A stretch of DNA of 64,000 nt from Peptococcaceae bacterium (GTDB lineage: Bacteria; Bacillota; Desulfotomaculia; Desulfotomaculales; JACDOK01): contig JACDOK010000009.1 of the NCBI GenBank assembly GCA_017656185.1, positions 1,227 to 65,226 on the forward strand, given 5' to 3'. The position numbers were made by a program, and so were the translations under genes. The notes under the pieces were generated by a model, which had not been told where the DNA came from, made no database searches, and saw nothing but the letters and a program-made list of their open reading frames with translations. Shown piece after piece: positions 2,894-62,387 of this stretch; the first letter of the stretch is position 1, and each line of letters starts with the position of its first letter.

Positions 2894-4072
2894 CTATGAG
2901 GTCTGTTTGAAACTCCGTTCGATGGTACCGCCTCCCACCACCAGGTCGCCGCGGTAGAATACCGCGGCCTGGCCGGGGGTAACCGCCATCTGCGGATCGG
3001 AAAGCCTGACCAGTACGCGCCCGTCTTCCAGAGGCGCTATAATCCCTTTTACGGCAGGGGTGGTATATCTGATCTTAACTTCTACTTCTGCGGGGCCGGT
3101 CAACCTGTCAAAAAGGATGAAATTATTTTCGGTAGTCGTGAAGGTGCTGACCTGCAGGTCCTCCTTGTCACCCACGACCACGGTGTTTTCAGCGGGATCC
3201 AGCGCCACTACGTAAACGGGCCGGCCCAAGGCCAACCCCAGCCCGCGGCGCTGGCCGATGGTGTAGTGATGCACACCTGAGTGTTCACCCAAAACTTTGC
3301 CTTCGGTATCGACAATGGGACCGGGTCGCGCCGCGCCGGGTCTTCTTTCATTAACAAAGTTTCTGTAATCTCCGTCAGGAATAAAGCATATTTCTTGACT
3401 TTCCGGTTTGGCGGCCACTTTTAATCCCACCTTGCGGGCTATGTCCCGTACCTGGCTTTTCTTAAGTCCTCCCAGCGGAAACAGGATGCGTGACAGTTGA
3501 TCCTGCGTGAGCATGTAAAGGAAATAGCTTTGGTCCTTCTGATCGTCAATGCCCCGCAGCATAAGGTACCGGTTGTGTTCCAGCGAGTAGAAGACCCGCA
3601 CGTAATGGCCGGTGACCAGCCACCTTGCGCCCAGTTCCGCGGTGCGCCGCAGGAGAAGATCGAACTTGATGTATTTGTTGCATGCAACGCACGGGTTTGG
3701 CGTGCGCCCGGCCAGGTATTCGGATATGAAAGGATCGACAACCATCCGCTCGAAGGGTTCGCGAAAATTAAGGACGTAATGAGGAAAACCCAGGGACCAC
3801 GCTATGTTCCTGGCGTCATTAATCGCACCCAGGGAACAACAAGTCCGCGGCAGGGAAGGTCCTTCGTCGATCACGGGCCATACCTGCATAGTAATGCCGA
3901 TGACATCGAAACCGGAGTTTTTGAGCAGGTATGCCGCGACGGAGCTGTCAACTCCGCCGCTCATGGCAACCACTGCTTTCTCCGGATTGCCGTACCGGTT
4001 CTGGCTTCGTTGCCAATCCAGTTCGTGGTTAACAGTGTCCTCATTGAGCCGGGGAAATACCCCCTGCCGCAT
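2894..4072 (-). CDS. mnmA: tRNA 2-thiouridine(34) synthase
   Basis: 392 aa. PP-loop AMSGGVDSSV, then CCSLG..NPCVACN. Sits downstream of iscU/nifS as in many Firmicutes. Confidence 0.9.
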   Translation of the reverse strand: MRQGVFPRLNEDTVNHELDWQRSQNRYGNPEKAVVAMSGGVDSSVAAYLLKNSGFDVIGITMQVWPVIDEGPSLPRTCCSLGAINDARNIAWSLGFPHYVLNFREPFERMVVDPFISEYLAGRTPNPCVACNKYIKFDLLLRRTAELGARWLVTGHYVRVFYSLEHNRYLMLRGIDDQKDQSYFLYMLTQDQLSRILFPLGGLKKSQVRDIARKVGLKVAAKPESQEICFIPDGDYRNFVNERRPGAARPGPIVDTEGKVLGEHSGVHHYTIGQRRGLGLALGRPVYVVALDPAENTVVVGDKEDLQVSTFTTTENNFILFDRLTGPAEVEVKIRYTTPAVKGIIAPLEDGRVLVRLSDPQMAVTPGQAAVFYRGDLVVGGGTIERSFKQTS

Positions 4073-4093: not shown

Positions 4094-4489
4094 TTATTCT
4101 ACAGCCCGGTCAGTTTCAGCCTGTTTGGACCGGGAAAGGTAGTCGTTAATGGCTTTGTGCAGGGCGTCGGCCGCCAGATTTGAGCAGTGCAGCTTGTTTC
4201 GCGGCAGCCCGTCCAGAGCCTCTGCCACGGCGCGGTTAGTAATCTGTTTCGCCTCTTCAACGGTTTTCCCTTTAACCATTTCGGTCACCATGGAGCTCGT
4301 GGCAATCGCCGCCGCGCAGCCGAAGGTTTTGAACTTGATGTCCGTTATCCTGTTGTTGTCAACTTTGATGCTGATCTGCATAATATCACCACATGCCGGG
4401 TTTCCGACCCGGCCCACGCCGTCCGCGTTCTCGATTTTCCCTACGTTGCGGGGGTTTGTGAAGTGATCCATTACTTTTTCTGAATACAT
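4094..4489 (-). CDS. iscU: Fe-S cluster assembly scaffold (NifU/IscU N-terminal type)
   Basis: 131 aa. MYSEKVMDHFTNPRNVG..GNPACGD..FKTFGCAAAIA..LHCS motifs. Confidence 0.9.
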   Translation of the reverse strand: MYSEKVMDHFTNPRNVGKIENADGVGRVGNPACGDIMQISIKVDNNRITDIKFKTFGCAAAIATSSMVTEMVKGKTVEEAKQITNRAVAEALDGLPRNKLHCSNLAADALHKAINDYLSRSKQAETDRAVE

Positions 4490-4490
4490 C

Positions 4491-5657
4491 TTAACACCTC
4501 CCGGGAGACGCGAGCGGGGACATCGCCCTCAGTTTCTTTACGGTTTCTTCCAGAACGTCGACGACGTAATCGATATCATCTTCGGTATTGGACGTACCCA
4601 GAGTCATTCTTAAAGAGCCGTGGGCCACCTCGCGGGGTATTCCCATAGCCAGCAGCACGTGGGACGGTTCGAGAGTCCCGGACATACACGCCGAGCCGCT
4701 GGAAGCGGCAATACCCTTCAAGTCGAGGTTCAAAAGTATGGATTCACCTTCTACATACTTGATGCTGACGTTGACGTTGCCCGGCAGGCGGCGCCGGCGG
4801 TGGCCGTTAAGTTTAACGTCTTCGATGCGCCTAAATATCTCTTCTATGAGCTTTTCCCGCAGGCGGGTCAGCTTTTCCCGGTGTTCGTTCAATTCTGCCG
4901 CTGCCAGCTCCGCGGCCTTGCCAAACCCGGCGATTCCCGGGACGTTTTCCGTACCCGGCCGTCTCCCGCGCTCTTGAGCCCCACCGTACAATATAGGGGC
5001 GATCTTAACTCCTTTACGGACATAGAGGGCCCCGATACCTTTGGGCCCGTACAGCTTGTGGGCGGACATGCTCAACAAATCCACCCCGAGCTTTTTGACA
5101 TCCACTGGGATCTGGCCTACGGCCTGAACGGCGTCGGTGTGGAACAAAACACCGTGCTCACGGCATATGCGCGCGATTTCCGCTACCGGTTCTACCGTGC
5201 CGACTTCGTTATTGGCAAGCATCACGCTTACTAACGCCGTGTCTTTGCGGATGGCGCGGCGTACATCGTCCGGGTCCACCAGCCCGTCGCTGTCCACGTC
5301 AAGATAAGTAACGGCATGGCCCTCCTTTTCTAACGCTTCCGCGCAGTGAAGGACGGCGTGATGCTCTATCTTCGTGGTTATAAAATGCTGCTTCTTGTCT
5401 CTGGTATAGGTCACGCCTTTGAGGGCAAAATTATCGGCTTCGGTGCCTCCGCTGGTGAAAATTATTTCTTCCGGAGAAGCATTAATTAGATTGGCGATGT
5501 ATTTTCTTGCATCATCCATGCCCTTCCTGGCTTCTTGGCCGGTTGAATGAGGACTGGAGGGATTGCCCCAATTGGCAGTCAAATATCTCGTCATTACCTC
5601 GGCAACCTCAGACCTTACGGGGGTCGTAGCCGCGTGGTCAAGATAAATCCGCCTCAT
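4491..5657 (-). CDS. nifS: Cysteine desulfurase (NifS/IscS class)
   Basis: 388 aa. IYLDHAATTP, SAHKLYGPKG (PLP lysine) and SSGSAC (active-site Cys). Confidence 0.9.
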   Translation of the reverse strand: MRRIYLDHAATTPVRSEVAEVMTRYLTANWGNPSSPHSTGQEARKGMDDARKYIANLINASPEEIIFTSGGTEADNFALKGVTYTRDKKQHFITTKIEHHAVLHCAEALEKEGHAVTYLDVDSDGLVDPDDVRRAIRKDTALVSVMLANNEVGTVEPVAEIARICREHGVLFHTDAVQAVGQIPVDVKKLGVDLLSMSAHKLYGPKGIGALYVRKGVKIAPILYGGAQERGRRPGTENVPGIAGFGKAAELAAAELNEHREKLTRLREKLIEEIFRRIEDVKLNGHRRRRLPGNVNVSIKYVEGESILLNLDLKGIAASSGSACMSGTLEPSHVLLAMGIPREVAHGSLRMTLGTSNTEDDIDYVVDVLEETVKKLRAMSPLASPGRC

Positions 5658-12332: not shown

Positions 12333-12356
12333 AATTAGTTATCCGCCTTATTTTAC

Positions 12357-12440
12357 GAGACAGGATGAACAGGATTTTTTAAATTACAGGGTTTTAGAAA
12401 GCGTAACGAACGTATCACAGACCGGCCGAAGGGAGCGAGC
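12357..12440. repeat. Intergenic mosaic repeat copy (GACAGGATGAACAGGATT word + GTATCACAG..GGGAGCGA tail)
   Basis: Shares words with the loci at 32474, 33733 and 38341, and its tail with 54704-54731 (GTATCACA..CCGG.GGGAGCGA). Confidence 0.6.
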
Positions 12441-13959: not shown

Positions 13960-15024
13960 ATGGATTATCTTTTCAAAGTACTGCTGAGCGGGTATCACGA
14001 AATCCTGGAGTACCTGTCGGCCCACGTTCTGACTTGTTTGGTACCGGCATTCTTTATTGCCGGGGGCATCGCGGTCGTGGTTTCCACGGGTGCGGTTTTA
14101 AAGTATTTCGGTCCCACCACCAAAAAGTACATTTCTTACGGGGTGGCCTCGGTTTCGGGGACCGTCCTGGCGGTGTGCTCCTGCACGGTGCTGCCCCTTT
14201 TCGCGGGCATATACCGTAAAGGAGCCGGGCTCGGTCCCGCCGTAACCTTCCTGTTTGCCGGGCCGGCCATTAACCTTCTTGCCATCGTTCTCACGGCCCG
14301 TAAACTCGGGTTTGATCTGGGTGCCGGGCGGGCCATCGGCGCCGTCTTGTTTTCAATTATCATCGGCTTAATTATGGCCGCTGTTTTTCGCAAAGAAGAA
14401 CAAGCAAAGGCACAGGCGGCGGAAAGTGCTTCCGGTTTTGCAGCCGGTATTGATGATGAGGGTAAGCCTGCCGGCCAATTGCTGGCCTTTTTCGGTATCC
14501 AGGTGGCCATCCTGGTGATCGGCACTGCCCAGGTAACTCTTGTTACCAAGCTGGGGGTTATCGTAGCTCTGTTGGTAGCACTGGGTGTGGTCCTGGTCAA
14601 GTGGTTCAGTAAGGAAGAAGTAAAGGACTGGTTGATAGAAACCTTCAAGCTTGTCAAGCTCATTTTCCCCATCCTATTGGTAGGTGTATTTGTGGCCGGT
14701 GCCTTAAAGGTAATCATCCCCGAACAGTGGATCGCGGCCTCGGTGGGCGGCAACGGCATCCTGGCCAACCTTATAGCGTCCGTGGTAGGGGCCTTGATGT
14801 ACTTTTCGACCCTTACCGAGGTGCCCATTGTCAAAATGCTTGTTGACCTGGGCATGGGGCGGGGCCCCGCGCTGGCGCTCTTGCTAGCCGGCCCGGCTCT
14901 GAGCCTGCCCAACATGCTCGTAGTGCGGAACGTAATAGGCACGAAAAAGACCCTGGTATACGTCGGCACTGTAGTGTTAACGGCTACTGTTGTCGGTTAT
15001 CTTTTCGGTTGGTTGGTAGGTTAA
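13960..15024 (+). CDS. DUF318/ArsP-type permease (putative organoarsenical or related efflux permease)
   Basis: 354 aa polytopic membrane protein with a VCSCTVLP vicinal-Cys motif. It has the usual partner, a small thioredoxin-like protein, downstream. Confidence 0.8.
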   Translation: MDYLFKVLLSGYHEILEYLSAHVLTCLVPAFFIAGGIAVVVSTGAVLKYFGPTTKKYISYGVASVSGTVLAVCSCTVLPLFAGIYRKGAGLGPAVTFLFAGPAINLLAIVLTARKLGFDLGAGRAIGAVLFSIIIGLIMAAVFRKEEQAKAQAAESASGFAAGIDDEGKPAGQLLAFFGIQVAILVIGTAQVTLVTKLGVIVALLVALGVVLVKWFSKEEVKDWLIETFKLVKLIFPILLVGVFVAGALKVIIPEQWIAASVGGNGILANLIASVVGALMYFSTLTEVPIVKMLVDLGMGRGPALALLLAGPALSLPNMLVVRNVIGTKKTLVYVGTVVLTATVVGYLFGWLVG

Positions 15025-27286: not shown

Positions 27287-27305
27287 AACCGCGTTTTTGA
27301 TTTTT
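27273..27305 (+). terminator. Rho-independent terminator of rpsT
   Basis: ACGCGGTTT-CCTA-AAACCGCGT followed by TTTTGATTTTT. It overlaps the stop codon. Confidence 0.65.
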
Positions 27306-27347
27306 AGACGGAATTAACAGGATCGATAGTAATCCTGCCTATAAGAC

Positions 27348-28382
27348 TTAACTGCCGGTTGATGCTTTAATAATGAAATCGGCCATAGCCGGGCGGAAGT
27401 CCTGCCGCCCGCTTTTAATGCCGGCGTCAATTTCCGTAATTTCTTCCAATAGTGCTATCAAGCGGCGGCGTTCAAATTTACGCCCCTGGTCGAGCGCTTT
27501 ACGTACTGAAAAAGGATGGACTTTTAACCGCGCGGCCATTTCTTGAGGGGTCAACCCGGCTTGTCTTAACTCTTTGACCGCCAGCATAATCCGCAAATGG
27601 CGGGCCAACAGGCTTAAAAAGCCAAAGGGTGATTCTTTGGCTTCCAAAAGCAAGTCGATGCCCTCTAAAGCCTGTGTGCCTTTTCCGGCCACGATGGCGT
27701 CAATGACCTGAAAAACCGTTGTTTCCACCGAGGGAACGACCACCGCGGATACATCATTGTGATCAATGGTGTCTTTTTCGGCTGCATAAGCCAGTACCTT
27801 TTGGAGATCATTCTGCAATCCCTGCAGACCACCCCGCGCGGATTGTACCAGCGTATGTAAGGCCGTATCGGTAAACCGCTTTCCTGCCTTTTTGCCTTCC
27901 CTGGCCACCCATTTGGCGGCGTCTGCCGCGCGCAAAGGTTGACAGTCCATTACCTTTCCTACCTTTGATACCAGCTGGTAGGCCTTTTTCCTTTTGTCCA
28001 CGGCGCCGTTTTTCAAGAACACCAGGCTGGTGGATTCTACGGGATGTTCCAGGTAGCGGAGAAGCGATTTTTCTCCTGAACGGGCCAACTTTTCCCCGTC
28101 CTTGTTGTTGGGATGACCGAAATAAGGGGCATGTTTTACCACGACCAGTCGTCGTTCGGCCATTACGGGATGCGTTTGGGCCGCCTGGACAATATGTTCC
28201 GCCGTTATCTCGTCACCGTCCAGCTGCTGGTAGTTGAAAGCTTCCATTCCGGGGGGCAGTAAGGCTTCTTTAAGGCGTTCCACAGCTTTGCGGTGCAAAA
28301 ACACTTCCTCCCCGTGCAGCAGGTACACGGGATAGAATTGGCCTTGTTCTATTTCCTTGACAAAAAGGCGGAAATATTCCAC
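27348..28382 (-). CDS. holA: DNA polymerase III delta subunit
   Basis: 344 aa. N-terminus ..YPVYLLHGEE.FL.. and the conserved position opposite rpsT as in Bacillus. GTG start with RBS GGAGGT. Confidence 0.85.
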   Translation of the reverse strand: MEYFRLFVKEIEQGQFYPVYLLHGEEVFLHRKAVERLKEALLPPGMEAFNYQQLDGDEITAEHIVQAAQTHPVMAERRLVVVKHAPYFGHPNNKDGEKLARSGEKSLLRYLEHPVESTSLVFLKNGAVDKRKKAYQLVSKVGKVMDCQPLRAADAAKWVAREGKKAGKRFTDTALHTLVQSARGGLQGLQNDLQKVLAYAAEKDTIDHNDVSAVVVPSVETTVFQVIDAIVAGKGTQALEGIDLLLEAKESPFGFLSLLARHLRIMLAVKELRQAGLTPQEMAARLKVHPFSVRKALDQGRKFERRRLIALLEEITEIDAGIKSGRQDFRPAMADFIIKASTGS

Positions 28383-28460: not shown

Positions 28461-28564
28461 GCCCAGCACTCAGGGTGTAATAAGTATACATAGGAGCATA
28501 AAAGTTAATCACTGGTTAACGAACCCGATATGTGAACTATTGTTACACCTGCTGAGTGCTGGAC
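28461..28564. mobile_element. MITE-like element copy A (104 bp; GCCCAGCACTCAG...CTGAGTGCTGGAC)
   Basis: The inverted-repeat arms extend to ~20 nt (..GGGTGTAA / TTACACC.TG..), with a 78-nt AT-rich interior ending CTATTGTTA. Confidence 0.55.
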
Positions 28565-28907: not shown

Positions 28908-31157
28908 ATGAGGAAAAGGAGTTTATTGTGGACGGCGGTATTACTGGTTGTATCCCTTTGTTTTGCGGGGGCGGCGGCTGCCGGTACTGTTGTAACTGTT
29001 GTAGAGGAAGCCGTTCCGGTAAAGAAGGCAGCACCGGGCGTGCCGGCGGCCGAACCGGAAGGAGAATTGATGCTGGCCACACCGGAGGACGCCATCGAGC
29101 GGGCCAGTGAGCTTTTCCCGGCAGTGGTGCAGAGTAAGGAAAAGGAACTGGAGGTGCATTTCAGCGACAGCCGCTATGAAGGACGGAGAATGTGGCACGT
29201 GAGTTATCACCCGCACAGGCCCGGTCCGGACTACGGTTATTTCAGTGTTTCCCTGGCCGCAGACACGGGCGAGTTGTTTGGCTATAACTACCGCCCGGAA
29301 CCCGGTGCCTTGGAAGGTAAAAAACGGGTAGTTACCCGCGCGGAGGCACTGCAAATCGCACGGGCCTTTGCCCGCAAGTACCAGTCGGAAAGGCTGGCCA
29401 AGATGCAGCTGGATGCCGATTACAACCGGCATCGCTACGGGGAAGCCCTCGACCTGAGTTACGGTTTCCGCTGGCACCAGGTCATCGATGGAGTACCGTT
29501 TAATGACAACAGCATCTATGTCAGGGTGGATGCTGTGTCCGGGCAGGTTACCGATTTCCGCTGCACGTGGCGGGAAGACGGGGAACTGCCGGAGCAAGGT
29601 GCCAAAATGGACGCTGCAGCGTTCACCAGTCGGGTAGTTGAAAAACTGGGACTTTACCCTTGTTATGTTGTAGATCCGGAGACGGAGCGCACAGGACTGC
29701 CGGACGCCATCCTGGTTTATCGCCTCAACACACCTTACCACCAGTTTGATGCCGTAACAGGTAAAGCTCTGGGTCCCGGTGGCAATATAGTGGATTGGGC
29801 TGATGCCAGGAAATATGATCGGGACTTCACTCCTGTTCCGGCGCCGGAACGGGCAACGGGTTATGATCAGCTCCAAGAGCATCTCAGCCCTGTTCAGGTA
29901 CAGAAAATTGCCGCTGCCTTCTTTAAGAAGCTCGGGCTGGAAGGTCGGGTGGAACGTTCCGGGGGCGGCAGCAGCGTTGGCCCGGGCTACCGCGAGGAAT
30001 ACTGGAGCTACCGCCTGGTGCGCGAAAAACCATATGAACACCGGGAGGTCAGTATCAATGCCCGCACCGGGGAAGTGAGATCGTATCATTCCGAAATTGA
30101 CCGCGGAAAACAGGACCGTAAGGGTGAAGGCATTTCCCTGCAGGAGGCGCAGCAGGCAGCCCGGGAGTTTTTAAAGCTGGTACGGCTGGACAACCTGGAC
30201 GAAATGGTTCTGCAGCAGGAACCCGAAAATTGGAAACTGGAGATGGCCTACCCGGAGGGACCTCCTGAGTACAACTTTACATACGTGCGCTTGGTCAACG
30301 GTATACCTTATGAACAAAGTACTGTAAGTGTTTCGGTCGACCGTTTCACCGGGAAAGTTGTGCGTTTCTACAGCCACGAGCGACCGGTGAAAACTTTTGA
30401 AGCTACTGCAGGCGTATTGCCGGAAGCCAAGGCTGTGGAGGCATTTAAAGAGTACCAACCTTTTACACTGGGTTATGAACGAATGCACGACTGGGAGAAC
30501 GAAACCGAGAAGGTCGTGCTGGCTTACTGTTTAGATTACGGCTACGGCATTGATGCCCATACGGGCGAAGAGGTAAAGCGGGACGGTACCAAAAAAGAAA
30601 CGCTCTCCTATAATACCAAACTGCAGTCCCACTGGGCACGCATACCTTTAACCCTGCTGGCGGACAGTGGATTGCTTCCGCCTCCGGAGGAGTTTAATCC
30701 AAACGGGACCGTAAACCGGCGGGACGGCCTGCGCGTACTGGCAGCTGCTATGATGCGGTACTACTACCCGGAAGGCCCGACTAAGTCTCCCTTCCAGGAC
30801 GTTGCGGATAACGACAAGGATCTAATGGCGATAAAATTAGCCGTAGACCGCGGGGTTATCAAGGCCGGGGGTAAATTACGACCCGACGCTCCCCTGACGC
30901 GAGAAGACCTGGCTGTATGGCTGGTCAATGCCCTCGGTTACAAGAAAATTGCCACCGCGCCTATCGATATGGCTGTAAACTTTAAAGATGCCTCTAAGAT
31001 CGGCGAAGGTAAGAAAAATGCGGTAGCCATTGCATCAGGCCTTAATTACATGAATGGTGATCAAACCGGTAGCTTCCGCCCACGCGATCCCGTTACTTGG
31101 GCCGAGCTTGCCAGCGTAATTGTACGGGCGGCGCCGGATTTAAACTGGCGGTACTAA
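28908..31157 (+). CDS. Secreted cell-wall protein with PepSY-like repeats and C-terminal SLH-like domains
   Basis: 749 aa. Signal peptide (LLVVSLCFAGAAAAG). Repeated PepSY-like segments. The C-terminal ~180 aa has SLH-like F(Q/K)D(V/A)..G..RP...(L/V)TR(E/A)(D/E)LA patterns. RBS AAAGGAGG. Confidence 0.7.
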   Translation: MRKRSLLWTAVLLVVSLCFAGAAAAGTVVTVVEEAVPVKKAAPGVPAAEPEGELMLATPEDAIERASELFPAVVQSKEKELEVHFSDSRYEGRRMWHVSYHPHRPGPDYGYFSVSLAADTGELFGYNYRPEPGALEGKKRVVTRAEALQIARAFARKYQSERLAKMQLDADYNRHRYGEALDLSYGFRWHQVIDGVPFNDNSIYVRVDAVSGQVTDFRCTWREDGELPEQGAKMDAAAFTSRVVEKLGLYPCYVVDPETERTGLPDAILVYRLNTPYHQFDAVTGKALGPGGNIVDWADARKYDRDFTPVPAPERATGYDQLQEHLSPVQVQKIAAAFFKKLGLEGRVERSGGGSSVGPGYREEYWSYRLVREKPYEHREVSINARTGEVRSYHSEIDRGKQDRKGEGISLQEAQQAAREFLKLVRLDNLDEMVLQQEPENWKLEMAYPEGPPEYNFTYVRLVNGIPYEQSTVSVSVDRFTGKVVRFYSHERPVKTFEATAGVLPEAKAVEAFKEYQPFTLGYERMHDWENETEKVVLAYCLDYGYGIDAHTGEEVKRDGTKKETLSYNTKLQSHWARIPLTLLADSGLLPPPEEFNPNGTVNRRDGLRVLAAAMMRYYYPEGPTKSPFQDVADNDKDLMAIKLAVDRGVIKAGGKLRPDAPLTREDLAVWLVNALGYKKIATAPIDMAVNFKDASKIGEGKKNAVAIASGLNYMNGDQTGSFRPRDPVTWAELASVIVRAAPDLNWRY

Positions 31158-32473: not shown

Positions 32474-32690
32474 GGATTTAATTAGACAGGATTAACAGGA
32501 TTAACTAGATTAGGGTTGTTCGGGTATTTCTTTGGGGTCCGTATTTTAGACAGGATTAGACAGGATTAACAGGATTGGGGGTTTTGGGATTTTTTGGGAA
32601 TACCCAAAACAAAGAATTTTATATTCTACTGAATCTCTACTGAATTTCTACCGGATCTCTACCGGATACTCTACCGTACATTTTGGACAA
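32474..32690. repeat. Mosaic intergenic repeat locus: CAGGATT word arrays, GGGTATT/GGAATACCC modules, and a 5 x 11-nt tandem array (32624-32678)
   Basis: Five exact CAGGATT heptamers and three GGGA(T/A). 11-nt units TTCTACTGAAT/CTCTACTGAAT/TTCTACCGGAT/CTCTACCGGAT/ACTCTACCGTA. Confidence 0.75.
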
Positions 32691-33732: not shown

Positions 33733-33830
33733 CTGTCTGAAACAAAGCTATCTGAAACAAAGGCCCCCAAAGGAATACCCAAAACTATACTAATTTTAGT
33801 CCGGTTAATCCTGTGAATCCTGTCTAAAAT
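33733..33830. repeat. Mosaic intergenic repeat locus (reverse orientation): CTGAAACAAAG doublet, GGAATACCCAAAAC, AATCCTGTGAATCCTGTCTAA
   Basis: The reverse complement reads TTAGACAGGATTCACAGGATTAACCGGA..GTTTTGGGTATTCCTTTGGGGGCC, which matches 32483-32540. Confidence 0.7.
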
Positions 33831-37364: not shown

Positions 37365-38321
37365 ATGATCATAAGTGCCAGCAGGAGAACAGATATACCG
37401 GCGTTTTACAGTGAGTGGTTTATTAACAGGGTAAAAGAGGGTTTTTGCGTTACTGTCAACCCGTTTAACAGGAAGCAGAAGAAACTTGTGAGTTTACGTC
37501 CCGAAGATGTGACGGCTATTGTATTCTGGTCCAAAAACCCTGCTCCTCTCATGAAATATTTGGACTACCTGGATGCAATGGGTTACCGCTACTACTTTGG
37601 ATTTACGCTAAACAACTATCCTTCCGAATTAGAACCCAATGTTCCTGAGGTCAAAACCAGAATAAACACCTTTAAGCGCCTCAGCCAAAGACTGGGTAAG
37701 AAGAGGGTAATATGGAGGTATGACCCGATAGTACTATCAAATAAAACACCTATCGACTTCCATATTGGGAATTTTGAGTTTTTAACAAAAGAGCTCAAGG
37801 ACTATACCTGTAAATGTGTTTTTAGCTTTTTAGAGCTATATCCCAAGGTTCAAAAAAGGATTAATAAAATGCACAAAGAATACGGTTTCGCCGTCCAGGA
37901 CATCCGCAGCGAAAAACATAAGCAGATTCTAAAGAGTTTGGTGATGCAGTTTAAATCTATTGCAGATTCGTATGGGTTAGATCTCCGATCTTGCGCGGAA
38001 AAAATGGATTTAACTCCGTATGGAATCAAGCCGAATTCCTGTATCGACGGTAACTTAATAAATGAGATGCCGGGTACGAATGTACCGTTTAAAAAAGACA
38101 GAAATCAGCGCAGAGAGTGTTTGTGTATCGAAAGTATAGACATCGGCATGTATAACACGTGTCTTAACCAGTGTGTTTATTGCTACGCGAATTACAGCGC
38201 TAAGACCGCGGAAGCAAATAATCGAGCCCATGATAAATTTAGCCCGGTATTGATCGGCAACCTAAACGACATAGACCTAAGTAAATTTAAGAAATATCAT
38301 AGTCAGAGAACATTGTTTTAA
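37365..38321 (+). CDS. DUF1848 domain protein (Cys-rich C-terminus, probable Fe-S)
   Basis: 318 aa. MIISASRRTDIPAFYSEWF is the characteristic N-terminus. C-terminal CLCIES..CLNQCVYCYAN. Confidence 0.8.
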   Translation: MIISASRRTDIPAFYSEWFINRVKEGFCVTVNPFNRKQKKLVSLRPEDVTAIVFWSKNPAPLMKYLDYLDAMGYRYYFGFTLNNYPSELEPNVPEVKTRINTFKRLSQRLGKKRVIWRYDPIVLSNKTPIDFHIGNFEFLTKELKDYTCKCVFSFLELYPKVQKRINKMHKEYGFAVQDIRSEKHKQILKSLVMQFKSIADSYGLDLRSCAEKMDLTPYGIKPNSCIDGNLINEMPGTNVPFKKDRNQRRECLCIESIDIGMYNTCLNQCVYCYANYSAKTAEANNRAHDKFSPVLIGNLNDIDLSKFKKYHSQRTLF

Positions 38322-38340: not shown

Positions 38341-38550
38341 AGTATTCCTGTCTGCCATTGCCGGCCCTGAGTGCTGGACCCCTACATTTTCAGTGAACAG
38401 TAAGCAGTGAACAGGAAACAGGAAACGGTTGAATAGAGTAAAGAAAATTCCTGCTTCCTACTTCCTGGTTAGTCAATTACAGGTATTTTTGACGGGATTG
38501 ACAGGATTAACTGGATTGGATAAGGGTTTTAGGGTATTCCTCTGTGCTGT
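38341..38550. repeat. Mosaic intergenic repeat locus containing all modules
   Basis: Contains TATTCCTGTCTGCC, a solo arm CTGAGTGCTGGAC (38367-38379), and TGAACAGTAAGCAGTGA (38394-38410). Also contains CAGGAAACAGGAAAC, GACGGGATTGACAGGATTAACTGGATTGG and GGGTATTCCTCTG. Confidence 0.75.
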
Positions 38551-38556
38551 GTAAGT

Positions 38557-38633
38557 GGGGTCAGGTCTTGACATTTGACACAATCTTTTATTCGGCTGTG
38601 AAGGCTTATTGTCAAATGTCAAGACCTGACCCC
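38557..38633. repeat. 77-bp perfect palindromic element (24-bp arms, 29-nt spacer)
   Basis: GGGGTCAGGTCTTGACATTTGACA ... TGTCAAATGTCAAGACCTGACCCC with no mismatch. Confidence 0.9.
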
Positions 38634-41719: not shown

Positions 41720-41746
41720 TTAGCACTCGTCAGGGGAGAGTGCTAA
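41720..41746. promoter_or_regulatory. CIRCE operator (HrcA binding site)
   Basis: TTAGCACTC-N9-GAGTGCTAA, a perfect match to the CIRCE consensus, between the promoter and hrcA. Confidence 0.9.
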
Positions 41747-54168: not shown

Positions 54169-54450
54169 ATGTCTTGGCGAGATATACGCAGGAAAATACG
54201 CAAAGGCATGGCTGACATACTGGAAATCCCGGGTGAAGTGGCTTTAGACCTGCCTAAAATCATTTTGGTAGGTAATGTTCAGGTAATTATTGAGAACCAC
54301 CGCGGGATTGTCGAGTATACGGACACGTTAGTACGTGTACTCGTCGAATCCGGTGAAGTTGCCGTTCATGGGCAGGACCTGTCCCTGCGCAACATAATGC
54401 AGGACGAAATATGCGTGGAGGGGGTTATTAAGGGTGTGAGTTTTAATTAG
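54169..54450 (+). CDS. yqfC: Sporulation protein YqfC
   Basis: 93 aa. LPKIILVGNVQVIIENHRGIVEY....V. Confidence 0.85.
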   Translation: MSWRDIRRKIRKGMADILEIPGEVALDLPKIILVGNVQVIIENHRGIVEYTDTLVRVLVESGEVAVHGQDLSLRNIMQDEICVEGVIKGVSFN

Positions 54451-54517
54451 TAAGCAGTTGGTAAGCAGTAAGTAGTAAAAAGTGAGGAGTGAGGCAGAGG
54501 GTAATTGGTAATTAAGA
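54448..54517. repeat. GTAAGCAGT / GTGAGGAGTGAGG word module starting at the yqfC stop codon
   Basis: TAGTAAGCAGTTGGTAAGCAGTAAGTAGTAAAAAGTGAGGAGTGAGGCAGAGGGTAATTGGTAATTAAG, with stops in all three frames. Confidence 0.7.
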
Positions 54518-54581: not shown

Positions 54582-54682
54582 GCCCAGCACTCAGTGAATA
54601 ATAGAAGTTTTCCGTGATCTTTATGGTTTTTCAACGTTACTTTGATGCGCTATCTATCAGTAATTACCCCTGAGTGCTGGGC
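54582..54682. mobile_element. MITE-like element copy C (101 bp) between yqfC and yqfD
   Basis: GCCCAGCACTCAG - 75 nt AT-rich interior - CTGAGTGCTGGGC. The interior aligns to copies A and D in reverse orientation. Confidence 0.6.
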
Positions 54683-54731
54683 GAATCACAGTGAGCGAAG
54701 CGGACGTATCACACCGACCGGAGGGAGCGAA

Positions 54732-55964
54732 ATGTTTGTTCTACGCATTCTGGCCTATCTTTTCGGCTGCGTATCTTTAATTGTCAGCGGTCGTACACTG
54801 GAACGCTTTATTAATATGGCAAACAGCCGGGGCATTCACCTTTGGGATATAAAACGCCTCGGGCCGGACAGGATCCTTATCAAGACGCGGCTGAGCGGTG
54901 TAAAACCCCTCCGGCATATCGCCAGGCGTACCGGAAGCAGGTTTTCCGTGCAGGAGCGCATGGGTTTTCCGTTTTTAATATCCCGGCTGCGCCGCCGGCG
55001 GATGTTGGTTTTGGGAGCGGTAATGTTTCTGGCCGCATTATATACGCTTTCATCCTTTGTGTGGTTCATAGAGGTAACCGGTAATACTAAACTTAGCGAC
55101 CATAAGATAATCGAGGCGGTACGTGAAGCGGGTCTGTATCCGGGGGTGCCCAAGTGGCGCTTTGAAGTTGCCCGTATCGAGGACGAGGTATTGAAAAAAC
55201 TGCCGTCCCTCTCGTGGGTAGGAATCCAGATTAGGGGTACCAAGGCATATATTGAGGTGGCTGAAAAGAAACTTCCCGATGTTACCGAAGAGAAAAGGCC
55301 GACCCACATTGTGGCTGCCAAGGCGGGATTAATAGAGGAAATACTGGTCTTGAGCGGCCAGGCGGTGGTGAAAGAAGGGGACACCGTTTTGCCCGGTCAG
55401 GTTCTGATCTCCGGTGAAATATGGCCTCCCGACGCTTTGCAAGAAGGGGACGAGGCAACCGTACTGCCTGAAGGGCCGCGCTACGTCCAAGCTAAAGGAA
55501 TAGTGCGGGCGCGGGTTTGGTATGAGGAGTACGGCGAAATGCCCCTGGTGGAAGAAGGTTGCCGTTTTACGGGGACCGAAGTACAGAGAATTTGCCTTAA
55601 GGTTGCCGGGCACCGGATAAAGATACGCGGCCCGAGAGAAGCCCCATTTAAGGATTATGAAAGTGAGACCAAAGTGTGGCAGGCCCCTCAATGGAGGAGT
55701 TTGCCCCTCCCTGTAGAAATCATAAGCACTACCTTTCGTGAAATAAGACCTTACCGGGTGGAACATAGTCGTGAAAGAGCTTTGGCTCTGGCACGAGAAG
55801 AAGCGGAAAAGCGGATTCGGAAAGTTATTCCTGACGGCAGTAAAATACTGAACCGCAAAATTAACGTTATTTACACCGGCAAAAAGGAACCTTTGGTGCG
55901 TGTAAAACTTGAGGTTGAAACTATGGAAGACATCGGTCGCCTTAAACCTTTTAAACCCAGTTAA
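54732..55964 (+). CDS. yqfD: Sporulation protein YqfD
   Basis: MFVLRILAYLFGCV.. ATG at 54732 with RBS GGAGGGAG. The ORF-track start of 54642 lies inside the repeat element. Confidence 0.85.
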   Translation: MFVLRILAYLFGCVSLIVSGRTLERFINMANSRGIHLWDIKRLGPDRILIKTRLSGVKPLRHIARRTGSRFSVQERMGFPFLISRLRRRRMLVLGAVMFLAALYTLSSFVWFIEVTGNTKLSDHKIIEAVREAGLYPGVPKWRFEVARIEDEVLKKLPSLSWVGIQIRGTKAYIEVAEKKLPDVTEEKRPTHIVAAKAGLIEEILVLSGQAVVKEGDTVLPGQVLISGEIWPPDALQEGDEATVLPEGPRYVQAKGIVRARVWYEEYGEMPLVEEGCRFTGTEVQRICLKVAGHRIKIRGPREAPFKDYESETKVWQAPQWRSLPLPVEIISTTFREIRPYRVEHSRERALALAREEAEKRIRKVIPDGSKILNRKINVIYTGKKEPLVRVKLEVETMEDIGRLKPFKPS

Positions 55965-56951: not shown

Positions 56952-59104
56952 CGGTAGTGGGTCTACCGCATTTGTTGGTTAAAATAGGACAAGTCTTCTC
57001 GTTTTTTGTACGCAGTGAAAGGGCCCGGCGTGTTTGGGCTTTCTTATTTTTTTATATTTCTCTCGCCCTTATTATTTCTGTACGCTATGTGCCGGCTCAG
57101 TTTGACCTGCAGGTAGGAGACGTAGCTCCTCGGGATATTCCTGCTCCGAAAACGGTAACTTTTATTGACGAGACTAAGACCGAAGAAGCCCGGCGTTTGG
57201 CGGAACAGAAGGTGGAGCCGCAGTATACGGTCGACCCTCAAGTAAGCGAGACCATAATAAAAGAAATTGACCGAATTATCACTGAGGTGCGGAATATCCA
57301 ATCTGCTGAGGTAGCTGAGGTAGAGAAAGGACAGCAGTTGGAGTCTGTTCTGCCTTTTGAATTACCGACAGATGTTATTGTTTCTTTGGCTTCCGGTAAC
57401 CCTGATGACACTGAACTGGTGGGAAAAGAGGTCAAGCGCCTGGTAAATTTGGTTCTGGGAACGGACGGCGGGGTGCGGCAGGAAGAACTGGATGCGGTTA
57501 AGCGTGATCTTACCAATCAAATTAATGACCTGGGCTTCAGTCGTCCTTATGAATTGCTGGCGCGAAATTTAATACAGTACCACTTGCGCCCCAATGCCTT
57601 TTTCGATGCCGAGGCAACCGCGAAACTACGTAAAGAAGCGCGTGCTACGGTGACTCCGGTACGTGTCACCGTCCAAAAAAATGAGTATATTATTCGGCAG
57701 GGTGAAGTCGTAACCGCCGAACACCTGTCTAAGTTGGAAGCGTTCGGATTGCTCCGGCCTCCGGTACCTTTCAAAATTCTTCTCGGGACGGTATTACTGA
57801 CGGCCCTCTTAATGGGAGTAGTGTTTCTGTATATTTACCAGCAAAAACGGAAACAATTTTCCGTCAGTTATTTATATCTTCTCGGCATTATAGTGGTAAC
57901 CGTTATGGCCATAGGGAAGGTACTGATCGCTGTTAATGTGGGGCCGTGGCCCGAATACGCCGATTTGTTGGGCTATAGTGTGCCGGTGGCGGCTGCCGGG
58001 ATGTTAATTGCCATTCTTATTGATGCCCGGTTGGCGATCATCGTAGTAGCTGCTATGGCGATAATGCTGGGGGTTATGACCGGTAACGACTTCAGGTTCG
58101 CCCTGGTAGGCTTTTTGGGAGGTATTGCCGGTGTTTACAGCGTATCCAAACTGAGCCAGCGTTCCGATTTAGCCCGGGCTGGCATTTATGTCTTCTTGGC
58201 GAATACGGCGGCTATTTTTACCGCAGGGCTTTTGAGTGATACTTCCTGGGGTCTTCTGTTGGCTTCCAGTACGACTTTGGGGTTGGCCAACGGTATCTTA
58301 TCGTCGATTCTAGCCAACGGTGCGTTGCCTTTTCTTGAAAACACCTTCGGCATTACTTCCAGTGTCAAACTCTTGGAATTATCCAACCCCGGTCACCCCT
58401 TACTCAGGCGGCTGCTGATGGAAGCGCCGGGTACTTATCACCACAGTATTATTGTGGGAAACCTGGCCGAGGCGGCTGCTCAAGAGGTCGGGGCCGATTC
58501 AGTTTTAGTACGGGTAGGTGCTTATTACCATGATATCGGCAAGGTGCGGCGACCTTACTTTTTTATCGAAAACCAAATGACCAATGAAAACCCGCACGAT
58601 AAAATCGCACCGTCATTATCAACCCTGATTTTGACGTCGCATGTCAAGGACGGCGTGGAAGCGGCTCGGGAGCATAAACTGCCTGAAAGGCTTATTGATA
58701 TTATCGAGCAGCACCACGGAACAAGCCTTATTAGTTTCTTCTATCATAAGGCGTTAGAGCAGGACGATAAGGGTACGGTACAGGAAACGGACTTCCGTTA
58801 CGACGGACCGAAGCCGCAAACCCGGGAAGCCGGTATCGTAATGCTGGCCGACTCGGTGGAAGCCGCGGTACGTTCCATGTCCAACCCGACGCCGGGCCAG
58901 ATCGAGGGTCTTGTCAGGAAGATCATAAAGGATAAACAGGCCGACGGGCAGCTGGATGAGTGTGATCTGAACTTCCGCGACTTGGATCTTATTGCGGGCG
59001 TATTTGTACGTATCCTGACGGGTATTTTCCATAACAGGGTTGAGTACCCTGACATCAAAGAAGTTGAAGGGAGAAAACCGAAAAATGGCTATCATCGTAA
59101 GTAA
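56948..59104 (+). CDS. pgpH: 7TM-receptor/HD-domain phosphohydrolase (YqfF/PgpH-like, c-di-AMP phosphodiesterase family)
   Basis: 718 aa. Extracellular N-terminus, 7 TM segments, HD domain (HHSIIVGNLAE..YHDIGK). Confidence 0.85.
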   Translation: MTVVGLPHLLVKIGQVFSFFVRSERARRVWAFLFFYISLALIISVRYVPAQFDLQVGDVAPRDIPAPKTVTFIDETKTEEARRLAEQKVEPQYTVDPQVSETIIKEIDRIITEVRNIQSAEVAEVEKGQQLESVLPFELPTDVIVSLASGNPDDTELVGKEVKRLVNLVLGTDGGVRQEELDAVKRDLTNQINDLGFSRPYELLARNLIQYHLRPNAFFDAEATAKLRKEARATVTPVRVTVQKNEYIIRQGEVVTAEHLSKLEAFGLLRPPVPFKILLGTVLLTALLMGVVFLYIYQQKRKQFSVSYLYLLGIIVVTVMAIGKVLIAVNVGPWPEYADLLGYSVPVAAAGMLIAILIDARLAIIVVAAMAIMLGVMTGNDFRFALVGFLGGIAGVYSVSKLSQRSDLARAGIYVFLANTAAIFTAGLLSDTSWGLLLASSTTLGLANGILSSILANGALPFLENTFGITSSVKLLELSNPGHPLLRRLLMEAPGTYHHSIIVGNLAEAAAQEVGADSVLVRVGAYYHDIGKVRRPYFFIENQMTNENPHDKIAPSLSTLILTSHVKDGVEAAREHKLPERLIDIIEQHHGTSLISFFYHKALEQDDKGTVQETDFRYDGPKPQTREAGIVMLADSVEAAVRSMSNPTPGQIEGLVRKIIKDKQADGQLDECDLNFRDLDLIAGVFVRILTGIFHNRVEYPDIKEVEGRKPKNGYHRK

Positions 59105-59549
59105 TTTTCAAGAGGATACCCTGTTGGATGACGCCCTCGAATCTCTGGCGGAACGGGCTGTAGAGGAAACGCTGGCTGCCGAAGGTCGCGGGGATGTTGT
59201 TGAAGTAAGCGTGGCATTCGTCGATGACGAATACATGCACCGTCTCAATAAGAATTACCGGGGTATTGACCGCACGACGGATGTTCTGGCTTTTCCAATG
59301 AATGAGGAGGACCCTGGTGCTCCCGGCGAGGAACCGCATTTGATGCTCGGGGACATTGTTATTTCCCTGCCGGCAGCGCAGCGGCAGGCTGCAGAGTACG
59401 GGGTTTCTTTGGAACAGGAAGTGGCCCGCCTAGCGGTCCACGGTGCTCTGCACCTGTTAGGTTACGATCACGAAAAGGGCGGAGAAGAGGCCGAGCGGAT
59501 GCGAGAGAGGGAGAATGAGATTCTTGAACGGGTAATCGGTAAGCAGTAA
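59085..59549 (+). CDS. ybeY: rRNA maturation endoribonuclease YbeY
   Basis: TDVLAFP..., HGALHLLGYDH metal-binding motif. ATG at 59085. Confidence 0.9.
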   Translation: MAIIVSNFQEDTLLDDALESLAERAVEETLAAEGRGDVVEVSVAFVDDEYMHRLNKNYRGIDRTTDVLAFPMNEEDPGAPGEEPHLMLGDIVISLPAAQRQAAEYGVSLEQEVARLAVHGALHLLGYDHEKGGEEAERMRERENEILERVIGKQ

Positions 59550-59580
59550 GCAATGAACAGTAAGCAGTGAGGAGTGAGCG
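59538..59580. repeat. GTAAGCAGT / TGAACAGTAAGCAGTGA / GGAGTGAG word module overlapping the ybeY stop codon
   Basis: GGTAAGCAGTAAGCAATGAACAGTAAGCAGTGAGGAGTGAGCG. The 17-mer TGAACAGTAAGCAGTGA is identical to 38394-38410. Confidence 0.75.
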
Positions 59581-59605
59581 TAACTTATGTAGAACGTAGG
59601 GCGGT

Positions 59606-59708
59606 GCCCAGCACTCAGGGCTGATTACCATAAGTAAGAGCGTTAAGAGTCGAGTTATATGAACAAGAAGGGACATTTGAATGCTCTATTGTTGACTGAG
59701 TGCTGGGC
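59606..59708. mobile_element. MITE-like element copy D (103 bp) between ybeY and cdd
   Basis: GCCCAGCACTCAG - 77 nt - CTGAGTGCTGGGC, followed by GTATCACAG and the cdd RBS. Confidence 0.6.
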
Positions 59709-59740
59709 GTATCACAGCGACCATAAGGGAGTGAAGTTTT

Positions 59741-60133
59741 ATGTCACCTATGTCCGATAAAGCTCTAATTGAAGCCGCCCTTAATGCCCGCGAACAGGCC
59801 TACGCCCCTTATTCGCGTTTTCGGGTGGGTGCGGCCCTGCTGACTGCAGATGACAAGGTTTATACAGGTTGTAATGTGGAAAACGCCTCCTTCAGCATGA
59901 CCATATGTGCGGAACGCGTAGCTGTTTTTAAGGCCGTCTCAGACGGGAAGTTTGATTTCAAAACTATTGCCGTGGCGGCGGACGGTGAGCATTTCTGTCG
60001 TCCCTGCGGGGCCTGCCTGCAGGTTTTGGCCGAATTTGGCTTGGATACGCGGGTGTTAATGGCGAATGAAAAGGGATTGTTTGAAGAACGTACACTTGCA
60101 GAATTGCTCCCGGCGGCTTTTCAGTTGATCTGA
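59741..60133 (+). CDS. cdd: Cytidine deaminase
   Basis: 130 aa. CAER (zinc/catalytic) and CRPCGACLQ motifs. Confidence 0.92.
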   Translation: MSPMSDKALIEAALNAREQAYAPYSRFRVGAALLTADDKVYTGCNVENASFSMTICAERVAVFKAVSDGKFDFKTIAVAADGEHFCRPCGACLQVLAEFGLDTRVLMANEKGLFEERTLAELLPAAFQLI

Positions 60134-60149
60134 TTACAATGGAATATCC

Positions 60150-60248
60150 GGTAGAGATCCAATAGAGATCCGGTTGAGATCCGGTAGAAACACAGTGGAA
60201 ACACAATAGAGACACGGTGGAGACACAGTAAAGATCCGGTAGAAATCC
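60150..60248. repeat. Tandem array of nine exact-phase 11-nt units (consensus RGTAGAGAYCC)
   Basis: Units: GGTAGAGATCC AATAGAGATCC GGTTGAGATCC GGTAGAAACAC AGTGGAAACAC AATAGAGACAC GGTGGAGACAC AGTAAAGATCC GGTAGAAATCC. Followed by GGAATACCCGAAA. Confidence 0.9.
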
Positions 60249-60358
60249 GGAATACCCGAAATCTATGTTTGGATTCCTTTGAGATTACGGGAGGGTTACA
60301 AACCTCCCCTGCGTTCTATAGTAGTTACTTAGGAATAGGAAGGTAGTCCAATAACGTC

Positions 60359-61963: not shown

Positions 61964-62177
61964 ATTTATACTTCTTTTAGCAATTTTGGAAGGATTATTA
62001 TATAATAGTATAGAATAAAAAATTACAATGCCGCGCAGCGTACCGGTAGTGCTGGGCCGCAGGTTACCGGGTTCCAATCGGAAAGGCTGACCGGGAGAAG
62101 CCCTGCCCGGGGTTTACCGGGTGCCAAGTGCGTTCCGACTCATGGTTGTGGAGTATGGTTTTAAAGCAAAGGCCAGT

Positions 62178-62387
62178 TTACTCCCGGGTTGCCTTGATGG
62201 GAATGGCCGGTTTTAAGAAGGTGCGCTGCGCTTTTTTTAATGAGCAGCCATAGTTATTTCTAAACCTCGTTGTTGAACCTGTGTACCGCGGCCGGCGATT
62301 GGTTAGGGTATTTATGGCATGCTCTTTCATAATTCTGAGCCAAAAACGGTTTAACCGCAAAGATTCCCTTACAAAATGATCAGGCAT
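62178..62387 (-). CDS. Hypothetical very basic 69-aa ORF downstream of adhE
   Basis: ATG preceded by GGAAGGAGAG. No motif recognised and it may be non-coding. Confidence 0.2.
   Translation of the reverse strand: MPDHFVRESLRLNRFWLRIMKEHAINTLTNRRPRYTGSTTRFRNNYGCSLKKAQRTFLKPAIPIKATRE

Follow-up and report, generated by a model that had tools for sequence, protein, structure and literature searches.

A hairpin repeat family with conserved arms and unrelated interiors in Bacillota and Patescibacteria

We have analysed a 64,000-nt stretch of contig JACDOK010000009.1 (positions 1,227 to 65,226, forward strand; referred to below as the window) from a Peptococcaceae bacterium, and observed that three elements of about 100 bp in this DNA belong to a large family of non-coding hairpin repeats, ~95-100 bp long, that spans bacterial phyla. 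Its only conserved part is a perfect 12-13-bp terminal inverted repeat, R-C-CCAGCACTCAG ... CTGAGTGCTGG-G-Y, the arms of which stay paired through compensatory changes while the interiors between them diverge. At homologous flanks we found presence and absence of the element, nesting, inversion and swapping of interiors. The reading that we favour, and which we judge evenly poised between right and wrong, is that these are non-autonomous hairpin repeats, similar to doublets of repetitive extragenic palindromes (REPs) that form hairpins (REPINs) or to miniature inverted-repeat transposable elements (MITEs), and that they are moved by an enzyme encoded elsewhere. The family is apparently both undescribed and unannotated; we found no published description of it in literature on the arm sequence, on 16S insertions, on MITEs in connection with RNase P or riboswitches, or on REPs and REP-associated tyrosine transposases (RAYTs) in Firmicutes.

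An earlier note on this DNA had described three complete copies and a solo arm, and these four features were confirmed by our arm scan. With up to 2 mismatches allowed to the arm GCCCAGCACTCAG, we observed 8 matches in the window where 1.4 were expected, and a count of 8 was reached in none of 100 shuffles. Six of the 8 pair into three inverted copies, the seventh is the solo arm, and the eighth, a 2-mismatch site at position 14317, is unrelated. Copy 1 (28461..28564, + strand) has its arms at 28461-28473 and 28552-28564, the right arm carrying a single mismatch (GTCCAG); copy 2 (54582..54682, - strand) has arms at 54582-54594 and 54670-54682; and copy 3 (59606..59708, + strand), the one to which the note had drawn attention, has arms at 59606-59618 and 59696-59708. 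The interiors between the 13-nt arms measure 78, 75 and 77 nt, respectively, in agreement with the spacings given before. The solo arm (38367..38379, - strand) reads GTCCAGCACTCAG on that strand, has no recognisable partner, and is probably the remnant of a decayed copy. A weaker arm proposed at 62047-62056 turned out to be only a 9/13 match (GTAGTGCTGGGC) with no partner, and we do not count it. Orientations of the copies, as set by their interiors, are (+), (-) and (+) for copies 1, 2 and 3, and once copy 2 is flipped the three interiors align weakly over their full length (GGG.T.ATTA ... CTATT.TT.A), rather than only near the ends as had been proposed.

Every window copy, folded as RNA of either strand, gave a stem closed by the arms, with minimum free energies of -34 to -47 kcal/mol and z scores of -3.5 to -6.6 (-47.2 kcal/mol and -6.6 for copy 1). 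None of the window copies is followed by a T run, and function as an intrinsic terminator, for which a GC-rich stem and then a T run would be expected, is rejected. A scan that covered copies 2 and 3 found no promoter- or terminator-like site coinciding with either. We also noted that a Logan contig, SRR13776093_4634 (L102; L numbers are our designations for individual sequences), which is an independent short-read assembly of the same sequence, stops inside the left arm of copy 3, at window position 59613. This suggests that the hairpin element breaks assemblies, and the family matters as a cause both of interrupted assemblies and of faulty annotation of RNA genes.

The extent of the family was assessed with an exact arm-pair scan, CCAGCACTCAG-N60-90-CTGAGTGCTGG, which has 22 fixed bases and admits by its geometry only elements of 82-112 bp. 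Applied to 596 Gb of sequence, one genome per species, the scan returned at least 101 loci in 26 species genomes, where we estimate that about 2 would be expected by chance. A census had been proposed in the earlier note as a check on the family, and it was decisive. Among the matches listed, 18 genomes are from Bacillota, 5 are from Patescibacteria and 3 are atypical. Carriers among cultured Bacillota include Desulfofundulus australicus, D. thermosubterraneus, D. thermobenzoicus, Neomoorella stamsii, Moorella mulderi and Desulforudis sp. Tu-874, and further Bacillota carriers include metagenome-assembled genomes (MAGs) of Ammonifex, Pelotomaculum, Syntrophomonadaceae and Thermoanaerobacteraceae. 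The Patescibacteria carriers belong to Paceibacterota, Parcubacteria and Saccharibacteria, with one unclassified. Interiors of the Patescibacteria copies are AT-rich (14-34% GC), which is consistent with native rather than contaminant DNA, and their neighbours are ordinary housekeeping genes. Copies can be dense: in the Bacillota genome MAG044 we found about 0.08 additional copies per kb, or approximately one per 13 kb, around each triggering copy.

The three atypical matches come from two Acidobacteriota (L019 and L024) and one Burkholderiales genome (L050), and their architecture differs from that of the Bacillota and Patescibacteria elements. The arm pair is embedded there in inverted arrays of tandem heptamers (CAGCACT / CAGTACC ...), and in L050 the whole unit of ~182 bp is in tandem repeat.

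There is also a short form of the element, in which the same stem carries a loop of 3-18 nt. One such form, at 7053-7078 of L004, reads CCCAGCACTCAC-GTCC-GTGAGTGCTGGG with a compensatory change, and lies inside a cobQ-like open reading frame (ORF), in the linker of the CbiA and GATase_3 domains. Two apparent cases of copies within ORFs were dismissed on inspection: this one, in CobQ, involves only the short form and an inter-domain linker, and the copy at MiaA (L028) is upstream of the true start. Among the viral contigs scanned, the long form was absent and short forms were present on one contig; a phage vehicle is thus unlikely. The contig in question (L103, an IMG/VR contig classed as viral) has three short-loop stems, at 1158-1183, 1833-1858 and 3953-3980.

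When copies were compared with each other, the arms and the interiors behaved very differently. The 142 distinct copies fell into 50 interior clusters with no detectable mutual similarity, and the cluster median lengths were mostly 86-100 bp, it being noted that the scan itself admitted 82-112 bp only. Considered as units with terminal repeats, the elements measure 86-110 bp with repeats of 12-13 bp. In copies that we found through interior homology alone, the arms were near-perfect and the interiors, judged by eye, were ~75-85% identical. One whole subfamily has CTCAA...TTGAG where others have CTCAG...CTGAG, a compensatory change in the arms. Immediately beyond the 11-nt core, 94 copies have a C-G pair and 16 have T-A; the next pair outward is usually A·C/G·T or G-C. 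At the third position outside the core, Watson-Crick pairs occur in only 12 of 124 flank pairs, and the helix therefore ends sharply after 12-13 bp.

In other genomes, some copies lie inside structured RNA genes, where we placed them by Rfam and Infernal alignments. Helix 6 of 16S rRNA is occupied in Pelotomaculum UBA3102 and in a Syntrophomonadaceae MAG (L052 and L005), and P12 of RNase P RNA is occupied in D. thermosubterraneus DSM 16057, the rnpB gene of which is 433 nt long, and again in the Syntrophomonadaceae genome L005. L005 has a second 16S copy further into the gene and a second RNase P RNA copy near the 3' end, so that each of these two essential RNA genes contains two copies, four in all (130-237, 325-432, 4099-4208 and 4386-4491). 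Cobalamin riboswitches of three Desulfofundulus and two Moorella/Neomoorella species have the element as the hairpin that follows CCACUG. In the Infernal alignments the arms fall on consensus stem columns, and the host helix is replaced rather than interrupted; in the cobalamin aptamer of L032, by contrast, the host stem is kept and is capped by the short form. Which helices are filled varies between orthologous 16S genes and between orthologous RNase P genes. We found no link in the literature between 16S insertions and a genome-wide repeat; insertions as such are known in the 16S genes of Desulfotomaculum relatives (PMC4817712), and the present family offers a concrete origin for these long-noted insertions.

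Such locations bring in the possibility that the arm helix is selected in transcripts, as a signal for processing or stability. It could serve as a site for an RNase III-type or other endonuclease, as a block to 5' or 3' exonucleases between cistrons, or as the closing helix of an intervening sequence that is excised from rRNA, RNase P RNA and riboswitch leaders, and a protein that binds or cleaves RNA would then recognise the arm sequence. The stems of RNase P P12, 16S helix 6 and the cobalamin riboswitch hairpin on which arms are found are all transcribed, and the insertions already known from 16S genes point the same way, as do the sharp end of the helix, the existence of short hairpins with 3-18-nt loops (e.g., in the cobalamin aptamer of L032), and the fact that copies 2 and 3 are located within operons, with 32-49 nt separating them from the start codon that follows. 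Yet several observations made on the copies as a set are at odds with selection in transcripts. With the sense strand assigned from co-directional flanking genes, mismatches in and around the arms were not more often G·U than A·C on that strand (13 vs 17 at position -2, and 3 vs 6 in the core). The interiors are oriented at random with respect to transcription (7 in the same and 10 in the opposite direction to the genes for interior family 0, and 3 vs 4 for family 2). Copies occupy divergent (27) and convergent (17) gene spacers as well as co-directional ones (62). For 27 copies of the largest interior family, RNAalifold recovered on both strands the arm helix only, with no interior consensus or covariation, so that the covariation check suggested in the earlier note came out negative. 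To our knowledge, there is also no precedent for sequence-specific reading of a perfect A-form helix by a protein present from Bacillota to Patescibacteria. In the aggregate, a strand-symmetric constraint at the DNA level fits better than a specific functional RNA, and we regard selection of the helix in transcripts as possible but unlikely.

Rfam gave no match in the whole window at the gathering threshold, and none at E<=10 around the window copies and one foreign copy. Together with the RNAalifold results, the orientation counts and the G·U counts, this speaks against a structured non-coding RNA with a conserved interior fold. The earlier note had offered a choice between old MITEs and a structured site under selection for stem and length; what remains of it is a real repeat family that keeps its stem and its approximate length, and neither a classical MITE (see below) nor a conserved RNA interior is retained.

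Several observations indicate movement. One interior family occurs in at least 6 flank contexts, and similarity stops exactly at the arms. In Paceibacterota STC_102, three long copies that are ~99% identical are found at unrelated loci (one precedes clpP, one separates two small genes and one is close to dnaA), and in Tobar18m-G8 there are seven near-identical copies at unrelated loci. Nested elements were observed in L035, L093, L021 and L080. The target-site duplications that had been suggested as a check were not found; the 124 distinct flank pairs that we compared, and the three window copies, are free of direct repeats next to the arms. Nor did we find, in the 101 loci, long-range arm pairs that bracket a gene. 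In MAG044-like genomes, a slot of the form GGAG|hairpin|TGAG in paralogous flanking units holds either the element or a short CGTAC-N6-7-GTACG hairpin.

Around the hairpin in MAG044-, MAG002- and MAG163-like genomes we noted a repeated unit of ~200-250 nt with outer inverted ends (GGAACGCGGCGAG...), seen at L036 4540-4800, L004 4023-4258 and 6134-6281, and L022 1827-1979, and in L030, L051 and L056. This unit has a built-in ribosome-binding site right before the downstream gene, as in the case of a unit located between grpE and dnaK, and gave no match in Rfam.

Inverted repeats that enclose a segment found in both orientations, as in invertons, were also observed. Interiors are inverted between the same flanks in L009 versus L087 (99% identical once flipped), in L042 versus L001, L044 and L072, and, by direct reading of the sequences, in L033 versus L068. 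Another 44 pairs with matching flanks have interiors that are neither the same nor inverted, and many of these pairs are between different interior families (e.g., L036 versus L038 and L051). Such flipping and exchange between copies could mean that the arms are sites of a site-specific recombinase, acting in the manner of an inverton. The inverted interiors between identical flanks, which include ~99% identical copies in one genome, would follow from this, as would the unrelated interiors between identical flanks and arms, and in the window copies 2 and 3 stand in opposite orientations upstream of genes. On the other hand, random-orientation insertion accounts for the same data, and neither the window nor the surroundings of copies elsewhere yielded an invertase or recombinase. 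For recombinase synapsis on double-stranded DNA, ~75 bp makes a very short segment, and loops between short inverted repeats can invert with no enzyme, as in chloroplast hairpins. With no internal promoter-like site in the window copies scanned (copies 2 and 3) and no recombinase found, an invertible promoter is rejected, and recombinase sites in general appear decidedly improbable.

The favoured reading, a hairpin repeat moved by an enzyme encoded elsewhere, can be put as follows. The two arms would pair with each other, most plausibly as single-stranded DNA at replication, and would constitute the recognition and cleavage site of an enzyme from elsewhere in the genome. The moving unit would be bounded exactly by the arms and would insert without target duplication, preferentially on an existing hairpin or as a substitute for one. 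Once the unit is in place, its interior would be without information, and would be free to drift, to take on the base composition of the host, and to flip. In transcripts, the element would be merely an extra stable helix closing a loop of ~75 nt, which is why it could be tolerated between cistrons (yqfC|yqfD and ybeY|cdd in the window) and in variable peripheral helices of RNA genes; it may also affect the stability of mRNA. That movement is enzyme-mediated and proceeds via a DNA hairpin we infer from the observations above, and our guess is that the enzyme is HUH/RAYT-like or is another structure-specific nuclease or recombinase. The arms offer a 13-bp bait with which the moving or processing enzyme might be sought, and since Desulfofundulus, Moorella/Neomoorella and Desulforudis are available as cultured carriers the question is directly testable.

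Several points weigh against this reading. As the earlier note had already stated for a transposase, a candidate mobilising enzyme is missing from the window: Pfam detected no transposase or recombinase domain among its 40 ORFs, 4 of which have no Pfam match. None was found adjoining copies elsewhere, and the genes between neighbouring copies in MAG044 and MAG002, like those flanking the Patescibacteria copies, are housekeeping genes. Identical arms across phyla would need an equally conserved and horizontally transferred enzyme, and we know of none. Databases contain no close relative of the source MAG (the best Cdd homologue there is 67% identical), so that empty sites of the window copies are not available for comparison. 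Some copies are inherited stably, the same cobalamin riboswitch being filled in three Desulfofundulus species and other copies being common to Moorella and Neomoorella. Selfish DNA alone does not explain the narrow length range of unrelated interiors, nor does it explain why whole helices are so often replaced instead of split. Also, the interior swaps at identical flanks could be due to gene conversion between paralogous units rather than transposition.

The replacement of whole helices, the lack of target duplications, the similar lengths of unrelated interiors between identical arms and flanks, and the fixed unpaired end of the helix together led us to consider a further idea, namely that the arms are the substrate of an undiscovered structure-specific system for hairpin exchange in subsurface Bacillota and Patescibacteria. 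A DNA enzyme might cut at the base of the hairpin and swap one hairpin for another, or excision might occur at the RNA level and depend on a protein; in either version we consider the idea doubtful.

Comparison with known systems places the family between several of them. With the REP/REPIN-RAYT system it shares an extragenic location, high copy number, and an inverted doublet of ~100 nt that has a less conserved spacer and folds as one hairpin. REPINs likewise lack target-site duplications, are non-autonomous and persist vertically over long periods, and their enzyme is the product of a single-copy gene elsewhere in the genome. A REP, however, is in itself a palindrome of 20-40 nt that bears a tag, GTAG or CGTC. 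The present arm GCCCAGCACTCAG is a non-palindromic 13-mer and has no conserved tag of this kind, GTAG being found at copies 2 and 3 alone, ~10 nt upstream, and on these grounds a REP is rejected. Any one REP family is confined to its lineage, but the arms described here are identical across phyla, in many anaerobic Bacillota and in Patescibacteria, and no RAYT gene was seen in the window or in the sampled loci. We know of no REPIN inside rRNA or RNase P genes, where the present element does occur.

Bacterial MITEs such as Correia/NEMIS, RUP, bcr1 and Nezha are similar to our element in being non-coding, ~100-150 bp long and bounded by terminal inverted repeats, in lying between genes or within operons, and in forming hairpins in mRNA. 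However, MITEs have target-site duplications, full-length homology, and a cognate insertion sequence with the same ends, whereas here there is no duplication, no insertion sequence was seen in the window or bracketed by arms in the 101 loci, and the interiors fall into ~50 unrelated families. A classical MITE is thus not supported. The intervening sequences of rRNA (23S helices 25 and 45, 16S V1) are stem-loops of ~90-130 nt that replace the tip of a variable helix, and their sporadic distribution suggests horizontal transfer. The elements of L052 and L005 are insertions of this type in 16S helix 6 (the window itself has no rRNA, and no tRNA or tmRNA was found in it). Yet intervening sequences are described as specific to rRNA, and the present hairpin is intergenic throughout genomes, occurs also in RNase P RNA and riboswitches, and has a sequence-invariant stem. 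Integron attC sites, which are imperfect palindromes of 57-141 bp with conserved ends and a variable centre, act as folded single-stranded hairpins and so resemble our element in form; but the RYYYAAC / GTTRRRY boxes are absent from it (its ends being CCAGCACTCAG / CTGAGTGCTGG), and its copies are dispersed in both orientations among housekeeping genes rather than grouped in cassette arrays beside intI. The attC assignment is therefore rejected. If indeed undescribed, the family is a rare repeat in that a sequence-invariant stem is common to bacterial phyla, including the tiny genomes of Patescibacteria, and it links REP- and MITE-like intergenic repeats with the intervening sequences of rRNA and with the expansion hairpins of RNase P RNA and riboswitches.

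The earlier note had also pointed out that the 7-bp core of the arms, AGCACTC / GAGTGCT, is the core of the half-sites in the controlling inverted repeat of chaperone expression (CIRCE), the operator of HrcA. The shared 7-mer is real, and it raises the question of whether the arms, as HrcA-related binding sites, place the genes beside them in the heat-shock regulon. The window has one perfect CIRCE, TTAGCACTC-N9-GAGTGCTAA at 41720-41746, at the head of the hrcA-grpE-dnaK-dnaJ operon, and this is the sole match at up to 3 mismatches. The 7-mer itself has 14 matches in the window where 4.5 are expected, but the arms and CIRCE themselves account for 9 of these. Some copies adjoin genes for chaperones or proteases (grpE-dnaK in L036, htrA-clpB in L017, clpP in L009), and the short form of L032 has the N9 spacing. 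CIRCE, however, has a fixed 9-nt spacer and TTA/TAA ends and occurs once or twice per genome, upstream of groE/dnaK, whereas the present element has tens to hundreds of copies in unrelated contexts. Its half-sites are 79-82 nt apart in the window and 7, 8, 9 or 18 nt apart in short forms, and the core is flanked by CC/GG rather than TT/AA. The contexts are mostly unconnected with heat shock: rpsF-ssb, infC-rplT, rpmH/dnaA, pilM, holA, yqfD, cdd and the interiors of RNA genes. Identity as a CIRCE/HrcA operator is thus rejected on spacing, flanking bases and context, and an association with heat-shock genes is rejected likewise, the adjoining genes not being specifically of that kind. The resemblance is probably a coincidence, and we consider a role of the arms in the heat-shock regulon scarcely credible.

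In the window, genes adjoining the copies were assigned with Pfam. Copy 1 lies in a divergent spacer between holA (27348-28382, - strand) and a gene for a PepSY/SLH protein (28908-31157, + strand). Copy 2 has a yqfC/yabP-family gene (54169-54450) on one side and yqfD (ATG at 54732) on the other, its end being 49 nt upstream of the yqfD start. Copy 3 follows ybeY (59040-59549) and precedes cdd (59741-60133), with 32 nt between it and the cdd ATG. The solo arm is in the spacer between a DUF1848 gene (37365-38321) and lepA.

Three of these four sites also have arrays of heptamer words, all on the + strand. The first, of TAAGCAG / GTGAGGA words (54448..54494), lies ~90 nt upstream of copy 2 and has the yqfC stop codon (54448-54450) at its start; the second, GTAAGCA x 6.6 (59537..59583), contains the ybeY stop codon (59547-59549) and ends 22 nt upstream of copy 3; and the third, of CAGTGAA / CAGTAAG / AACAGGA words (38391..38426), begins 12 nt from the solo arm. 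Arrays of CAGTAAG/CAGTGAG heptamers occur at exactly three sites in the 64 kb, all of them within ~90 nt of an arm. The first two arrays have stops in three frames; a period of 7 is the reason that such an array closes all three reading frames. Behind copies 2 and 3 are spacers that are related to each other, both having RTATCACAGYGA / GTATCACAnCGACC and then a ribosome-binding site: the spacer between copy 2 and yqfD (54683..54731, + strand) carries GAATCACAGTGA and GTATCACACCGACC followed by the ribosome-binding site GGAGGGAG, and that between copy 3 and cdd (59709..59740, + strand) carries GTATCACAGCGACC followed by AAGGGAG.

The 191-nt spacer between ybeY and cdd in the window is accordingly best described as an inserted composite of heptamer array, hairpin, and a short spacer that contains a ribosome-binding site. 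With its stops, its hairpin and this site, such a composite would be able to separate cistrons that formerly overlapped, without their expression being abolished. The earlier note had taken copy 3 as a replacement of dgkA at this junction, and the relatives that we compared do not bear this out: ybeY overlaps cdd in L104 and L106 (Ammonifex thiophilus), with neither dgkA nor the element between them, and the order ybeY-dgkA-cdd was found in only one of three relatives, Pelotomaculum propionicicum (L105). The ybeY-cdd junction is variable among distant relatives.

A motif, TCACAGYGA, accompanies arms at distances of 16-47 nt in the window and in two other genomes, a Burkholderiales and a Paceibacterota MAG (window 54686-54694 and 59712-59720; L050 at 54 and 236; L009 at 2674). 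It has 10 occurrences on both strands of ~0.8 Mb of sequence (~1.6 Mb counting both strands), 6 of which are less than 50 nt from an arm (5 distinct, L102 duplicating a window copy), and the L009 occurrence is part of a terminator-like stem. These cases are too few for interpretation. Tandem heptamers of other sequence (GTTCAAC, CTTCGAA, GAACTGT and CCGAACG) adjoin hairpins in MAG044-like genomes and in Desulforudis.

Other repeats in the window were noted in passing. The spacer between era and a convergent gene for an iron-containing alcohol dehydrogenase (62030-62240), which holds the 9/13 arm-like match mentioned above, is GC-rich and apparently structured; it gave no match in Rfam at the gathering threshold. 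Directly downstream of cdd, at 60141-60256, are about ten tandem 11-nt units (TAGAGATCCGG / TGGAAACACAG), and an inverted counterpart of this array, 78-81% complementary, is 27 kb away at 32624-32678. A family of intergenic words, (T)TAGACAGGATTAACAGGATT, has a periodicity of 9-10 nt and occurs in direct and inverted copies at 32481-32585, 33797-33830, 38485-38518, 27304-27333 and 12356-12385. Finally, a 24-bp perfect inverted repeat, GGGGTCAGGTCTTGACATTTGACA, with a 29-nt spacer (38557-38580 / 38610-38633), lies upstream of lepA and shares its intergenic region with the solo arm and its word array.

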